From Candidatus Levyibacteriota bacterium (GTDB lineage: Bacteria; Patescibacteriota; Microgenomatia; Levybacterales; GWA1-39-11): a stretch of DNA of 64,000 nucleotides. The translations under genes and the position numbers were made by a program. Shown here piece after piece: positions 31,565-61,928 of the stretch. The DNA lies in the NCBI GenBank assembly GCA_039738415.1, contig JBCLLY010000003.1:17084-81083 (forward strand), given 5' to 3'. Below the pieces are notes generated by a model that saw nothing but the letters and a program-made list of their open reading frames with translations, made no database searches and was not told where the DNA came from. Numbering within the stretch: the stretch's first letter is position 1; each line of letters opens with the position of its first letter.

Positions 31565-31873
31565 ATGCCAAAAGGAAGAATTAGAGTAAAGTTAAAAAGC
31601 TATGATTCTAGGATTATAGATAGTACGTGTCAGCAGATTATAGACACGGCGCTTCGTACTGGCGCAAAAGTTATAGGTCCGATTCCGCTTCCAAGTATCC
31701 GCGTTTCATTTGTAGTAAATAAATCTCCATTTATCGACAAAGACGCTAGAGATCATTTTGAACTCAAAACACATAAGCGGTTGATTGACATAGAGTCTCC
31801 TACAGAGTCGACCATCGAAAATCTCATTCACCTCGACCTCCCCACAGGGGTCAATGTTGAGATAAAGATGTAA
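31565..31873 (+). CDS. rpsJ: 30S ribosomal protein S10
   Basis: IRVKLKSYD...GPIPLP...THKRLIDI. Follows tuf. Confidence 0.96.
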   Translation: MPKGRIRVKLKSYDSRIIDSTCQQIIDTALRTGAKVIGPIPLPSIRVSFVVNKSPFIDKDARDHFELKTHKRLIDIESPTESTIENLIHLDLPTGVNVEIKM

Positions 31874-31876
31874 AGC
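31857..31876 (+). repeat. Direct repeat copy A (the authentic rpsJ 3' end)
   Basis: TTGAGATAAAGATGTAAAGC is 19/20 identical to 33110-33129. Each copy is followed by a TTCG-loop hairpin. Confidence 0.8.
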
Positions 31877-31977
31877 CACTTCGTGGAAATTCTAAATTCT
31901 AATTCCGAAATCCGAAACAACTTTCAACTTCCAAATTTTAAAACACTTATTTTGCCGCATTTAAATTAAGAAGCTAT

Positions 31978-32019
31978 ATTTTGCAATATAATGAAGCATC
32001 TTGCAGTATATTGCAAAAT
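31978..32019 (+). promoter_or_regulatory. Perfect 12-bp inverted repeat upstream of the Fic gene (candidate operator)
   Basis: ATTTTGCAATAT (31978-31989) and ATATTGCAAAAT (32008-32019), 18 nt apart, ending 11 nt before ATG 32031. Confidence 0.55.
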
Positions 32020-32030
32020 TTTGAAAGATA

Positions 32031-33017
32031 ATGTACAGTATTTTTGTGATAGAGGATTACTTTTATAAAACCAATTCGCATATTCAAGAGTACGCATATC
32101 GTATAAAAACATATAAGTCTCTTTTTGAAAAATTGCCTAGATTACCCCAAATTCAGGAAAATTTACTTAGAAAATCTGCATTAAAAAGTTCGTTATTTTC
32201 AGCAAGAATTGAGGGCAATAGTCTTGAATTAAGCGAAATTGAATTAGGGTTTTCCACTACCAGCGAAAAAAAGGAGGTAGAACAAATATTTTCGACCTTA
32301 AAATATGTGCGAAGTTTGAATACTGCTTTATCCAAGGAAATTGTTTGGGAAATTCATAGTCGAATAATGGATGGTTTGACAAGTGATTTAGGTAAGTTTA
32401 GATCCGAACAAACTGCAATATTTAATACAGCAGGTGTTGCAGTTTATCTACCTCCCCCACCTCAAAAAATAGCCGGATTGCTTCAGAATTTTCTGGAATA
32501 TACAAATGACTCGACCGATGATCTTACAAAAATTGCAATTGCGCACCTTGCTTTCGAAAAAATCCATCCATTTTTTGATGGAAACGGAAGAGTTGGAAGG
32601 ATTCTTATGAATTGGCATTTATCGCACTTAGGATATGGATTTGCGGGACTTATGTCTTTTGAGGAATATTTGGAAAACAATCGAGAGCAATATTACAACG
32701 GATTATCACTGAAAGGGAAAGATATTACACAGTTTGTCGAGTTTATTTTAGAAGCTATAGCTATAAGTAGTGAAAAAGTAATTCTTGAATTGCAAGAAAA
32801 AAAGGAAGAGAAAATTGAAGACTTTCTTCTTCCAAGAAGAACAGAGATCTTGTTAATAGTTAGAGAACATACCATGATGAGTTTTGACCAGATAAAAAGG
32901 AGGTTTATGGGTGTTAATACGCGTACATTACATTATGATTTGGAATATCTTATGAAAAAGAACCTAATTAAAAAATTGGGAAGCACAAATAGAGCTCTCT
33001 ACTCGCCTGTTGAGTAA
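32031..33017 (+). CDS. Fic family protein (AMPylase-type) with N-terminal inhibitory motif and C-terminal wHTH
   Basis: Fic core HPFFDGNGRVGR. SARIEGN matches the (S/T)xxxE(G/N) inhibitory helix. Confidence 0.9.
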   Translation: MYSIFVIEDYFYKTNSHIQEYAYRIKTYKSLFEKLPRLPQIQENLLRKSALKSSLFSARIEGNSLELSEIELGFSTTSEKKEVEQIFSTLKYVRSLNTALSKEIVWEIHSRIMDGLTSDLGKFRSEQTAIFNTAGVAVYLPPPPQKIAGLLQNFLEYTNDSTDDLTKIAIAHLAFEKIHPFFDGNGRVGRILMNWHLSHLGYGFAGLMSFEEYLENNREQYYNGLSLKGKDITQFVEFILEAIAISSEKVILELQEKKEEKIEDFLLPRRTEILLIVREHTMMSFDQIKRRFMGVNTRTLHYDLEYLMKKNLIKKLGSTNRALYSPVE

Positions 33018-33035
33018 TTTAGTTTTAAGTTGAAA

Positions 33036-33086
33036 TTTACCCCGCACCCAATGCTACGTTTGTTAGGTCGTGGGTGAGGGGTTTCC
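33036..33086. repeat. GC-rich hairpin island (TTTACYCCGCACCCAA ... GGGGTTT family), short copy
   Basis: ACCCCGCACCCA pairs with TGGGTGAGGGGT (one mismatch). Same termini as 30007-30118. Confidence 0.65.
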
Positions 33087-33109
33087 TGTTTTGCATTTGA
33101 AACAAAATT

Positions 33110-33129
33110 TTGAGATTAAGATGTAAAGC
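33110..33129 (+). pseudogene. Relic of an rpsJ 3' end (direct repeat copy B)
   Basis: TTGAGATTAAGATGTAAAGC reads (F)EIKM-stop versus the authentic (V)EIKM-stop. The only difference within the 20 nt is a synonymous Ile codon (ATA/ATT). Confidence 0.65.
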
Positions 33130-33306
33130 TTGCTTCGCAAGAAGTTTCAAGAACCAAATTCCAAGTTCCAAGAACTTATTTTCACCTTGAATTTGAATTA
33201 GCTTCATTTTTTTGTATCCATGGACTAGTCAATGGTGCTAAGTAAACGAATTAACCACTTCGTTGATTTAAATCATCGAAGCAAAGACACGCTGGTTGTT
33301 TTCTTA

Positions 33307-50118: not shown

Positions 50119-50574
50119 ATGGTTAAAGTAAAGAAAAATATAACAAAAGAATATATTCAAACGGTAGGACGAAGAAAGGAAGCTGTTGCCAGAGTTAGGC
50201 TTTATCCATCTGTGAGAAAAGTACAAATAGGAGAGCTCGAACTCGCAAAGGGAGAATTTAGCGTTAACAGCATGCCTGGGAAAGATTATTTTAGATTTAA
50301 AGCCTACTATCCTAAGCTTAATAAATTTCTTAAAGAGTTGGGAATAGAGGGTAAATTTATTTTTACAGTTAAAGTTGCCGGAGGCGGAATAAGCAGCCAA
50401 ATGGATGCTATGATCCATGGAGTAGCACGTGCACTAGACAAACAGGACACAGATGCTTTCCATGAGCTTTTACATAAAGGTGGATATCTTACGAGGGACG
50501 CTAGAACACGTGAGCGACGCAAGGTAGGAATGGGTGGAAAAGCAAGGAGAAAAAGACAATCACCAAAAAGATAG
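50119..50574 (+). CDS. rpsI: 30S ribosomal protein S9
   Basis: GGGISSQMDAMIHGVARAL; C-terminal KARRKRQSPKR. Confidence 0.95.
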   Translation: MVKVKKNITKEYIQTVGRRKEAVARVRLYPSVRKVQIGELELAKGEFSVNSMPGKDYFRFKAYYPKLNKFLKELGIEGKFIFTVKVAGGGISSQMDAMIHGVARALDKQDTDAFHELLHKGGYLTRDARTRERRKVGMGGKARRKRQSPKR

Positions 50575-50613
50575 TAAGTTTTCCGACGAAGCCCCGTCAA
50601 TCGCCCCTCGAGC

Positions 50614-50691
50614 CGTGAACGAATAGTTCCCAAAAGGTGAGAGGTAAGATTGTTGGGGGCAAGGAGAAAAAGACAAAGTCCAAAACGGTAG
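50614..50691 (+). pseudogene. Relic of a second, diverged rpsI 3' end
   Basis: 50659-50691 reads ARRKRQSPKR-stop, identical in protein to the authentic end. It uses different synonymous codons (Ser TCA vs AGT, Arg AGA vs CGG). CGTGAACGA 50614-50622 echoes CGTGAGCGA in the gene. An in-frame TGA lies at 50638. Confidence 0.7.
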
Positions 50692-50731
50692 TTTTTTTTG
50701 ACAAAGTGCCAAGATTGCTGCAATATACACC

Positions 50732-51220
50732 CTAAGAGGTAGATTCTATATTTTTCAATACTTCCTTTATAATATCCCAGTTATATCCGCGGGACCTTAA
50801 TCTACTAATTATTCTTTGATTTTTTTTCTCGGGTTCAAGTTTTTCGAATTGATGAATTCTTTTTTCGATATATTTTCCTGCTGTAATAATATCTTCTTGA
50901 GAGGCACTTAGGGTTTGTTCTGCAATATCTTTATTAATCCCTTTATATTTTAACTCAAAAGAAATCATCCTTTTACTTTTTCCCCTAATTTGTCTTGAGT
51001 TTATAAAGTTTTTGGAAAACTCCCTGTCGTCTAAAAATTTATAGTCAATAAGCTTTTCAATTGTTTCAGTTATTTCAGTTTCGGAAAAATTATTTTTAAC
51101 CAGGTAATCATTTATCTCCTTTGTGCTCAGCGCGCGATATGAAAGAAATCTAAGTGCTTTATTGAAAGATGAGCGGGGATTATCCTGTAGATTTTTACTC
51201 TTCGTCCTCATTGCTCTCAA
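50732..51220 (-). CDS. recX: Recombination regulator RecX
   Basis: [19 protein letters not shown] repeat architecture; overlaps the recA 3' end by 26 nt. Confidence 0.82.
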
Positions 51221-53416: not shown

Positions 53417-53487
53417 CGGGGTGTAGTTTAAAGGTAGAATACGCGGCTGGGGGTCGTGTGGCTGGAGTTCGATTCTCCGCACCCCGA
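53417..53487 (+). tRNA. tRNA-Pro (anticodon GGG)
   Basis: Hand-folded cloverleaf. Acceptor CGGGGTG/CACCCCG. D arm GTTT-AAAGGTA-GAAT. Anticodon stem CGCGG/TCGTG with loop CTGGGGG. T arm TGGAG-TTCGATT-CTCCG. Discriminator A. CCA is not encoded. Confidence 0.85.
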
Positions 53488-53526
53488 CTCTTCGACTCGG
53501 TCAATAAATTGACCTCGCTCAGAGTC

Positions 53527-53578
53527 TCCGACGATGAGGAAGGACTTATTGAGAAAGACTTTATTCTTGCAAAAAATA
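53527..53578 (+). pseudogene. Fragment of a diverged pterin-4a-carbinolamine dehydratase 3' end
   Basis: Reads SDDEEGLIEKDFILAK versus THDEGGITEKDFILAK in the intact gene. There is a 21-nt exact match, 53550-53570 = 54034-54054. Confidence 0.65.
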
Positions 53579-53797
53579 CTAGAGCGAGGCCGACCGCGTG
53601 TCGCCATAGCTTTAGCGGTGGCGCAAGGCCGAGCTCTTCGACAGGCTCAGGGTAAACGGATAGAAGGCGATGCGAAGGGGTTGCGTTCGCCTACCTTTGC
53701 GAAAATGACGTTCTAATTTTTCGATATAGCTCGACATTGTTAATTTCCTTAAATCTTTTTTTGAAAAAATAATAACAAGCTGTTATAGTTGTGTTGC

Positions 53798-54076
53798 ATG
53801 ACTAGACTTTCACTTGATGAAGTAAATACAAAACTAAAACAAATTAAAGGGTGGGATTTGATTGAAGAAAAAGAAATTAAGAAAACTTTTACGTTTAAAA
53901 GTTTCTTGCAGTCAATTGAGTTTGTAAATAAAATTGCACCAATTGCAGAAAAATTAAACCACCATCCAAATATATTAATACAATATAATATGGTAACTTT
54001 AACTCTTTCTACTCATGATGAGGGGGGAATTACTGAGAAAGACTTTATTCTTGCCAAAGAAATTGATAGTTTATAA
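53798..54076 (+). CDS. Pterin-4-alpha-carbinolamine dehydratase
   Basis: W...I.K.F.F..F...F.N.IA..AE..NHHP pattern (KLNHHPNILIQYNMVTLTLSTHD). ATG 53798. Confidence 0.85.
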   Translation: MTRLSLDEVNTKLKQIKGWDLIEEKEIKKTFTFKSFLQSIEFVNKIAPIAEKLNHHPNILIQYNMVTLTLSTHDEGGITEKDFILAKEIDSL

Positions 54077-61780: not shown

Positions 61781-61798
61781 TAAATCAAGTAAAACTAT

Positions 61799-61908
61799 CC
61801 GCCCGATTTTTCTTCAAGCCTTTTCAGTTCAATTTTGAACACGGCTTGAAGAGCAATCTTTGGCGGATGTAAGAAAGTGTAATTGCTCTAAAGTCGCAAA
61901 CACTTTCT
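61799..61908 (+). promoter_or_regulatory. Structured 5' leader (or small RNA) upstream of hup
   Basis: Nested helices: CCGCC 61799-61803 with GGCGG 61862-61866, CTTCAAGCC 61812-61820 with GGCTTGAAG 61843-61851, inner GTTCAA-TT-TTGAAC. Second hairpin AGAAAGTGT 61872-61880 with ACACTTTCT 61900-61908. Confidence 0.5.
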
Positions 61909-61928
61909 AACAAAGGGGGTGAATACAT

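Follow-up and report, generated by a model that had tools for sequence, protein, structure and literature searches.

The question raised by the locus described here is why the ribosomal protein gene rpsI of a Candidatus Levyibacteriota bacterium is followed, after a spacer of 84 nt, by a second and differently spelled copy of its own 3' end. The locus lies in a stretch of 64,000 nt (the window) of contig JBCLLY010000003.1 (assembly GCA_039738415.1, positions 17,084 to 81,083). The working terminal segment of rpsI, designated T1, and its displaced copy, T2, both encode the peptide ARRKRQSPKR followed by a stop codon. They are identical at 28 of 33 nt, of which the first 18 nt form an exact run; the five differences are all located within the last 15 nt and are all synonymous (TCA/AGT, AGA/CGG). 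Between both segments, a short linker and a hairpin, referred to as H1, were identified. The occurrence of the same layout at rpsI and at other conserved genes in many bacteria of the Candidate Phyla Radiation (CPR) points to an apparently undescribed tiny insertion element. With a probability of about 0.5, the locus arose through the integration of a small hairpin module that carried a gene terminus; this took place by recombination inside the terminal segment, repeatedly, and rebuilt rpsI while displacing its resident end.

The duplicated rpsI end and its hairpin

A diverged second rpsI end at this position, differing from the first by synonymous changes only, had been reported in the first-pass annotation of the window, and this end was confirmed to be real, being neither a chance likeness nor an assembly artefact. 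The segment is A/G-rich and the contig originates from a metagenome-assembled genome (MAG), as would suit a fortuitous resemblance in lysine/arginine-rich low-complexity sequence or the joining of strain variants during assembly; the probability of such an origin is nevertheless negligible. Within the window, no other 33-mer on either strand came within nine mismatches of T1, and 40 composition-preserving shuffles yielded no match at up to five mismatches and 0.025 matches per window at up to nine. Five random substitutions retained peptide and stop codon in 0.037% of trials (p = 3.7e-4). Moreover, the sister MAG GCA_039738455.1 (L202; L numbers denote loci throughout), which shows 99.1% identity over 1.76 kb, features exactly the same T1-spacer-T2 arrangement in an independent assembly. 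The module is also present in L209 and L211, which originate from different samples, and the layout was seen again in dozens of genomes.

The spacer, which the first-pass annotation had passed over, is a conserved, covarying hairpin and not junk. Region 50540-50705 (166 nt) folds with a minimum free energy of -46.4 kcal/mol (z = -4.4). H1 comprises the helices P1 (YCCC/GGGR), P2 (AUC/GAU), P3, P4 (GCC/GGC) and P5 with a tandem GA/GA between P3 and P4, the internal loops GU/UGAAAA and GC/UAA, and a GAAUA terminal loop. RNAalifold analysis of the spacers of rpsI modules revealed compensatory changes in 10 of 19 pairs, and the derived covariance model R1 assigned 85 bits to the H1 copy of this locus and recovered H1 in every rpsI module. 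Across 115 H1 copies (100 loci), 97.5% of the pair cells were paired and changes on both sides occurred in 16 of 18 pairs, shuffle and slid-partner controls remaining far below these values. G-U oppositions exceeded A-C oppositions (47 vs. 15), which identifies one strand as the folding strand of H1. The similarity to rpsI, interrupted by indels, that had previously been followed upstream of T2 (50611-50658) corresponds to the 3' arm of H1 and not to decayed rpsI, as H1 also occurs far from rpsI; the in-frame TGA at 50638 is thus without meaning.

Known RNA families do not account for H1. At gathering score, Rfam 15 returned only tRNA-Pro for the whole window, and at E<=10 nothing credible was obtained for 50480-50760, where one chance match to a long non-coding RNA appeared. 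Assignment to a self-splicing intron, a ribozyme or a curated RNA family was discarded, as there was no covariance-model match in Rfam. An intrinsic terminator was likewise rejected: the terminator scan found none at H1, and the T8 run is located 33 nt past the hairpin, behind T2. At other loci, a canonical terminator follows separately.

Features were encountered in the order T1, linker, H1, T2, T8 and T3/recX (Table 1). The third segment, T3, was matched by alignment of 50675-50800 to the junction of the rpsI and recX ends in the unoccupied loci L204, L207, L212 and L002. Its best-kept part comprises the last 11-13 nt, where the stop and last codons of recX overlap it (overlap 11 nt). This alignment shows T3 as the presumable trace of an earlier integration, so that integration would have been repeated at this locus. 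Constraint of T2 by an overlapping recX frame was ruled out, since recX ends 40 nt 3' of T2 and overlaps T3 only. Regarding the genomic neighborhood, rpsI closes a large ribosomal-protein cluster (rpoA, rplQ, rplM, rpsI), followed by the convergent recX and by recA, and on the source contig the gene calls up to 6 kb away from rpsI comprise housekeeping functions.

Table 1. Positions of the rpsI locus and of related features in the window.
Feature	Position	Strand	Description and evidence
rpsI (ribosomal protein S9)	50119-50574	+	intact, 151 aa; open reading frame (ORF), Pfam Ribosomal_S9, 80 homologous loci
T1, working rpsI terminal segment (ARRKRQSPKR-stop)	50542-50574	+	sequence GCAAGGAGAAAAAGACAATCACCAAAAAGATAG
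Linker	50575-50591	+	17 nt, TAAGTTTTCCGACGAAG; motif CGACGAAG common to rpsI-associated modules; from alignments
H1 hairpin	50592-50658	+	67 nt; folding, covariance model, covariation across copies
T2, displaced intact copy of the rpsI terminal segment	50659-50691	+	sequence GCAAGGAGAAAAAGACAAAGTCCAAAACGGTAG; begins right at the 3' foot of H1
T8 run	50692-50699	+	separates T2 and T3; sequence
T3, third, decayed rpsI-end relic	50706-50742	+	ancestral position; alignment with unoccupied relatives; GTGCCAAGATTGCTGCAATATACACCCTAAGAGGTAG
recX	50732-51220	-	convergent with rpsI; Pfam RecX; stop 50732-50734
rpsJ end and 3' untranslated region (UTR), left copy	31853-31953	+	last 18 nt and ~85 nt of UTR
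rpsJ end and 3' UTR, displaced copy	33106-33210	+	VEIKM-stop and hairpin with compensatory changes
Dehydratase gene	53789-54076		Pterin_4a, pterin-4a-carbinolamine dehydratase; repeated 3' end 53994-54058
Second H1 copy of the window	61798-61875	-	between rny and hup; covariance model 42.6 bits, E = 2e-8 (filters off)

Recurrence at rpsI and at other conserved genes

The rpsI loci of 80 other species-level Microgenomates genomes were searched for a second S9 tail, which was detected in ten of them (L006, L021, L030, L031, L037, L040, L043, L066, L075, L077), all belonging to the Levy-, Roizman- and Woesebacteria. The rpsI modules follow the scheme stop, 80-107 nt, G(A/T)RRK(K/R)QSPKR-stop, and their spacers are homologous and fold into H1. 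In 15 rpsI modules, T1 and T2 differ at 139 of 495 nt, corresponding to 94 synonymous vs. 10 non-synonymous codons; for 14 modules at other genes, 101 of 411 nt differ (72 vs. 9 codons). Furthermore, the identity of T1 and T2 within one genome (0.719) equals that of rpsI ends from randomly paired Microgenomates genomes (0.717). These values bear out the proposal of the first-pass annotation that the two ends were under coding selection in different lineages before they were joined, and it is supported that such a pair would not stem from simple duplication followed by drift.

Wherever a conserved protein gene ends only a few nt from H1, the 3' foot of the hairpin is directly followed by a second, recoded version of that gene's terminus. 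Such modules were identified at rplL (five cases; terminus A(T/K/S)VELK-stop), rpmG (four cases; repeat up to 48 nt), rpsG (three cases, the third being L090, of which two entered the codon count; AF(A/S)HF(R/K)(W/I)-stop) and rpsJ (L134 and L196; GVSIEIKM-stop, duplicated around H1), and further at secA and at two genes without identified product, with the terminus VELDLLQIAKV recorded for one such gene. In L145, a tRNA 3' end is the target, of which a 17-nt exact copy follows H1. At two loci, the first ~9-12 codons of a gene are repeated with synonymous differences on the opposite strand, and the module can hence also occupy 5' termini. The duplicated ends, lying on either side of H1, are a trxB-like 5' end in L126 (~1540-1700; MEKLYDVIILGSGPA; relic MYDVIILGSGP) and the pth-like 5' end MKLLVGLGNPG in L125 (~2300-2460; relic MKLIVGLG).

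Comparison of occupied and empty alleles in related strains revealed how abruptly the sequence changes at the module. In the clade of the window (S9 71-80% identical), no module is present in L204-L208, L212, L213 and L002, and in these module-free members rpsI and recX either meet directly at the rpsI stop or have up to 11 nt in common. In L209 and L211, the first 19 nt of T2 are the same as in T1, and the last 12 nt together with the flank are the same as the single end of the unoccupied L212; T2 of these loci thus looks like a chimera, as would be expected from a crossover inside the terminal segment. T2 of the window follows the pattern of L209, its 5' part being the same as in T1 and its 3' part different. 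Outside this clade, the rpsI body of the empty L036 matches that of the occupied L043 at 98% identity, and the sequences switch abruptly at the first nucleotide of the terminal segment, past which 11 differences occur in 31 nt. A similar contrast between empty and occupied alleles was observed for L034 and L030. In L037, L043 and L036, whose rpsI bodies are 92-98% identical, the last 33 nt nevertheless occur in four versions that look unrelated.

Accretion of further sequence was also observed. Modules are arranged in tandem in L075 and L152, and in L006 a 1.9-kb insert is followed by an intact third copy adjoining recX. L210 represents the strain type of L209, but its T2 has a replaced 3' half and a 560-nt ORF-bearing segment has been added; the relic itself acted as a recombination site. 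The cargo behind the relic T2 comprises a 148-aa ORF in L210 (1964-2620), while L006 (4580-6476) has two ORFs and a fragment of a transposase. The three cargo ORFs of L210 and L006 that were compared with Pfam gave no match.

The module is a member of a multi-copy two-hairpin family of Microgenomates, in which H1 is mostly preceded by a second, more variable hairpin, H0. At non-rpsI targets, the first 8-12 nt of T1 find their complement in the linker in many families, so that H0 encloses the gene terminus and the stop codon in its loop. H0 stems measure 12 bp in L115, 11 bp in L112, 10 bp in L148, 9 bp in L118 and 8 bp in L134 and L196, and at rplL they comprise 5-8 covarying bp. At rpsI, H0 is weak: in the window, UUUUCCG of the linker is predicted to pair with UGGAAAA (50535-50541) just 5' of T1.

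These borders bear on the rival explanation of a passive scar, namely that the 3' part of a relative's rpsI, together with a 3' UTR holding H1, replaced the resident gene end by homology-facilitated illegitimate recombination, with rpsI as homology anchor on one side and a microhomology join in the resident end on the other. H1 would then be a common 3' UTR structure and not a mobile unit. The run of 18-19 nt in the 5' part of T1 and T2 (window, L209) resembles a crossover or heteroduplex tract, and no dedicated enzyme was seen. The inserts in L210 and behind rpsJ of the window (described below) represent arbitrary cargo at such places with no H1 between the repeats, and H1 also occurs without repeats after tRNA genes and near promoter-like AT-rich stretches. 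Random joins should scatter, however, and the observed ones do not: in ~28 convincing pairs the right junction is always the 3' foot of H1, T2 starting -1 to +6 nt from it, and for each gene the repeat begins at the same codon in different phylum-level lineages. Moreover, the repeat is bounded on its left by the base of helix H0, distant lineages offer poor anchoring homology, and identical runs of T1 and T2 mostly measure 5-8 nt. Passive replacement is regarded as unlikely. The earlier label of a recombination scar, as opposed to a simple duplication, remains fair in view of the empty sites and the selection pattern; it falls short in implying a single event, as the architecture recurs in ten of the 80 other rpsI loci and at several further genes.

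Direction of insertion and the favored model

Codon usage was evaluated in order to distinguish the native from the incoming copy. T2 of rpsI modules shows a G+C content at third codon positions (GC3) of 0.32 and uses TCT for serine in 9 of 15 cases, resembling the ends of 67 unoccupied rpsI genes (0.31; 35 of 67). T1 reaches a GC3 of 0.52 (Wilcoxon p = 0.007; p = 0.0003 vs. the empty loci), never uses TCT (0 of 15; Fisher p = 9e-5) and never shares its serine codon with T2. Nine of the ten non-synonymous rpsI changes lie in T2, the T2 of L040 contains a stop codon, and older relics are degenerate (the second L075 relic, the L135 relic and T3). Across the family at rpsI, this pattern favors the reading that the module brings T1 and that T2 would be the displaced resident end. 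The window instance gives no direction, T1 and T2 both being AT-rich and different in their last 15 nt only, and T1 lacking the GC3 shift. At the other targets (14 modules), the GC3 shift of T1 was absent and is hence confined to rpsI. The bias of T1 suggests a possible constraint at the level of RNA or DNA structure. Regarding individual codons, T1 reads TCG CCN AAG CGA in several occupied genomes (among L030, L031, L040 and L135), which forms the palindrome TCGC-NNAA-GCGA at the stop, and AGG AGG for Arg-Arg appeared frequent in rpsI T1 by eye, this impression being uncounted.

The same data can be read in terms of an in-situ tandem duplication that freed rpsI from its overlap with recX, with a hairpin gained in between, a young relic, and T1 recoded later by selection, either for pairing with the linker or against repeat-mediated deletion. 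As unoccupied relatives have rpsI and recX directly adjoining or overlapping (up to 11 nt), inserting anything between them must duplicate the shared bases, and T3 indeed overlaps the recX stop. Native codon usage in T2 next to an atypical T1 would fit this history, as would rare residue variants, and sometimes the type of stop codon, common to T1 and T2 of one genome. It is contradicted by L043, whose T1 and T2 each deviate at 10-11 of 31-33 nt from the end of L036 at 98% identity of the rpsI body, a contrast that point mutation could not have produced in the available time. The layout also exists at genes without an overlapping neighbor and at 5' ends, and T1 shows no GC3 shift at other targets or in the window. 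Origin in situ is therefore considered improbable.

A function of T2 itself was considered as well. T1, linker and H1 might be excised from RNA or DNA, or H1 and T2 might constitute a scaffold-plus-guide RNA aiming a nuclease at native alleles. In favor of such a role, peptide and stop of T2 are almost always kept (166 synonymous vs. 19 non-synonymous codon differences overall), T2 immediately follows a conserved hairpin at its 3' foot, it retains native codons at rpsI while T1 is recoded without ever sharing the serine codon, and H0 closes T1 into a loop in several families. On the other hand, T1 already supplies the stop codon and a complete protein, and non-synonymous changes, stops and indels accumulate in T2 as in a relic. 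The 18-19 nt next to the hairpin are the same in T1 (window, L209), so that T1 is not immune by recoding; most H1 copies lack a duplicated target, no nuclease gene is linked, and Rfam gave no intron, ribozyme or omega-RNA match. Read-through or frameshifting into T2 was excluded, since the stop-to-T2 spacing is divisible by three in only 5 of 11 loci, the other six not being multiples of three, and stops intervene; an independent T2 mini-ORF was dismissed for want of a conserved start codon. A functional T2 is consequently very unlikely.

According to the favored integration model, the latest module would comprise ~117 nt, made up of one terminal-segment copy, the linker (17 nt) and H1 (67 nt). 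It would have entered by recombination in the 33-nt terminal segment, most likely in the 18 nt still identical, in a manner comparable to the single-crossover integration of a circle or to an integrative element at its attachment (att) site. The outcome would be a complete end joined to rpsI (T1), the module and a silent relic (T2); an earlier event of this kind would have left T3 beside recX, and relics would subsequently decay and occasionally be lost. Wherever a family member occupies a coding terminus, a recoded copy of that terminus forms its left hairpin, and the target gene is thereby kept intact. Integration explains the direct repeats, the intact gene, the chimeric relics, the abrupt borders of the terminal segment, accretion and the exchange of terminal segments among genomes that are nearly identical elsewhere. 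From these patterns we infer recombination in the terminal segment as entry route and a horizontal origin from related lineages. The hairpin family marks, and probably mediates, recurrent insertion at the termini of conserved genes in CPR bacteria. The process may be catalyzed by host RecA, by the joining of microhomologies, or in trans by a recombinase or an HUH enzyme that acts on H1. As to the role of the hairpin, our guess is a folded 3' UTR or a structure in single-stranded DNA (ssDNA), which in the window would also separate the convergent genes rpsI and recX.

Several results weigh against integration as described. In the modules and beside them, no recombinase, transposase or relaxase was found, the cargo ORFs having either no Pfam match or a Fic match; likewise, no integrase was detected within 4-10 kb at the inspected loci, where the neighboring protein families are housekeeping ones. 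With its ~120 bp, the module is too short to have travelled as a double-stranded circle, and the longest identical run of T1 and T2 measures 5-8 nt at varying positions in most modules (18 nt in the window, 19 nt in L209), too short for RecA-type homologous recombination. The different target genes share no common core sequence, so that neither of the classical routes is a clean fit, and H1 similarity is independent of the target gene. Between L037 and L043, T1 and linker show one difference in 56 nt at only ~67% identity of H1 and T2, a mosaic that requires extra recombination between modules; together with L036, these loci make the terminal segment and the hairpin appear to have been exchanged independently. 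T1 and T2 of one genome have rare residue variants in common (RRVKQ, RRQKQ, RKKKQ, E/E vs. D/D), which fits close-relative donors, gene conversion or in-situ duplication. About three quarters of the H1 copies lack a detectable flanking repeat. Finally, among IMG/VR viral contigs the strict H1 pattern gave no hit and a looser pattern four, none upheld by the covariance model.

A more far-reaching reading would invoke a selfish element with recoded rescue in the last codons of essential genes, in which T1 would provide the rescue and H1 plus T2 the guide (RNA or ssDNA) for a nuclease or recombinase acting in trans against unoccupied alleles, whereby the element would drive its own spread. This reading is regarded as highly improbable. 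In a weaker form, the module may be a mobile element served by an enzyme in trans, its left hairpin being 'programmed' with the target terminus.

The distribution of H1 was followed further in metagenomes by means of a 31-nt core pattern, which placed the hairpin on at least 120 contigs, mostly without duplication. Among the matches listed, 6 of 121 instances follow rpsI, four with a full module and two without an intact second copy. Several contigs carry two to four copies (four in L162). H1 is located between tRNA genes, after promoter-like AT-rich stretches or beside the start of a divergent gene. H0-H1 modules lie between two same-strand tRNA genes in L083 (7693-8064), L142 (1017-1306) and L181 (994-1346), and modules in such spacers are probably co-transcribed with the tRNAs, as judged from their arrangement. 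The second H1 copy of the window has no rpsI copy nearby and is preceded by a TAGAAA-type H0 hairpin (~61876-61916); on its left it borders on the Shine-Dalgarno site of hup in reverse complement (CACCCCCTTT), and several metagenome copies are likewise arranged beside the start of a divergent gene. The motif CACCTCCTTT upstream of some modules was initially taken for a 16S ribosomal RNA (rRNA) 3' end; Rfam finds no rRNA there, and the motif is the reverse complement of the Shine-Dalgarno site of the divergent gene, tRNA adjacency being confirmed instead. The H1 copy of L210 carries an extra 22-nt stem-loop in the apical region, where other insertions occur in L006, in the second L075 module and in L077. 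Subfamilies of H1 specific for a target gene were not seen, and a phage-borne attachment site (attP) was dropped as a candidate, as IMG/VR contained no confirmed H1. Literature searches yielded no relevant description of a hairpin repeat in CPR bacteria or of small elements that duplicate gene ends.

Two further repeats of the window, at rpsJ (33110) and at the dehydratase gene (53527), had been linked to the same theme by the first-pass annotation, and both are real. The rpsJ copies are ~65% identical, their post-stop hairpin (GCCACTTCGTGG / GCTTGCTTCGCAAG) having changed in a compensatory manner, and they flank a 1.2-kb insert (31954-33105) with a Fic/DOC gene (32031-33017). This insert contains no H1; a G+C-rich hairpin, ACCCCGCACCCA...TGGGTGAGGGGT (~33041-33084), precedes the second copy by 20-25 nt. 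At the dehydratase gene, an 85-nt relic of the 3' end (53491-53575), in which 53505-53574 corresponds to 53994-54058 of the gene, directly follows tRNA-Pro(GGG) (53417-53488) and is located upstream of the intact gene, a geometry unlike that of rpsI. The relic is succeeded by ~125 nt of unusually G+C-rich sequence (53576-53700).

CPR bacteria (Patescibacteria) have small genomes in which classical mobile elements are considered scarce. In the integration model, a non-coding module of ~120 nt would repeatedly and harmlessly enter the most conserved genes at their termini (genes for ribosomal proteins and tRNA, secA, trxB-like genes) and leave dated relics. If its mobility is confirmed, the module would represent a new type of element, an integrative element reduced to a hairpin and a gene terminus, and would explain the synonymous saturation of the last 20-50 nt between genomes that are otherwise 98% identical. 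Its relics would serve as markers of horizontal exchange and for its dating, and they can mislead gene callers and phylogenies of ribosomal proteins. The hairpin may, moreover, lead to an undiscovered recombination enzyme specific for gene ends.

Comparison with known systems

Several known systems share individual features with the module. Integron attC sites were rejected as a candidate, as the foot of H1 reads YCCC/GGGR or CCNCC/GGNGG and lacks AAC/GTT; cassette arrays beside intI were not looked for. A diversity-generating retroelement was excluded as well, since the differences in the window (T/A, C/G, A/T, A/C, A/G) are synonymous and not adenine-specific; no search aimed at a reverse transcriptase was made. 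In contrast to miniature inverted-repeat transposable elements, the module possesses neither transposase-type terminal inverted repeats nor a fixed short target-site duplication, its repeats being gene-specific, diverged and 12-48 nt long.

Families of structured repeats include REP/BIME with RAYT, Correia, BOX/RUP, the Rickettsia palindromic elements and the IS200/IS605-derived PATEs. Like REP/BIME-type repeats, H1 occurs in multiple copies, mostly at gene boundaries, as a non-coding hairpin whose loop and bulge nucleotides are conserved, whose stems covary and whose folding is strand-specific. No RAYT or TnpA was identified at the loci covered. In common with Rickettsia palindromic elements, the module lies within a coding region without destroying the gene; unlike them, it preserves the gene by means of a recoded terminus and not by in-frame translation.

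Campbell single-crossover integration and homology-facilitated illegitimate recombination are known from naturally competent bacteria. Here, too, a homology segment is present on both sides of the insert, relics are chimeric (L209, window) and any cargo may be included (L210, L006, rpsJ/Fic). The homology at the modules is confined to 21-48 nt, however, with runs mostly of up to 8 nt, and the junctions are exact and recurrent. With the engineered drives HomeR and ClvR and with TnpB/IscB retention, the module shares, as a functional analogy, the succession of essential gene, recoded terminus, element and native terminus, and the native terminus placed right 3' of an RNA-like scaffold may be likened to the guide layout of TnpB/IscB. 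In contrast to these systems, no nuclease is linked, and the scaffold-proximal 18 nt of the window are not recoded.

A close correspondence was found for elements of the att type, which insert at the 3' end of tRNA or conserved protein genes and bring a replacement end; they comprise prophages, integrative and conjugative elements (ICEs), integrative and mobilizable elements (IMEs) and the integrase-less cis-mobilizable elements (CIMEs). Streptococcal ICEs with a tyrosine integrase target the 3' ends of rpsI, rplL, rpmG and tRNA genes and, in a few cases, 5' gene ends; their direct repeats measure 12-54 bp (PMC4701971). The modules described here are found at rpsI, rplL, rpmG, rpsG, rpsJ, a tRNA gene and trxB-like and pth-like 5' ends, with repeats of 12-48 nt. 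As at attL and attR, the direct repeats contain the exact gene terminus and the gene is reconstituted intact, and the successive relics T1, T2 and T3 resemble accretion at an att site. The module differs from att-type elements in its insert of ~85-110 nt, which holds neither an ORF nor an integrase gene, in repeats that are 15-40% diverged instead of nearly identical, and in the combination of one hairpin with many targets that lack a shared core.

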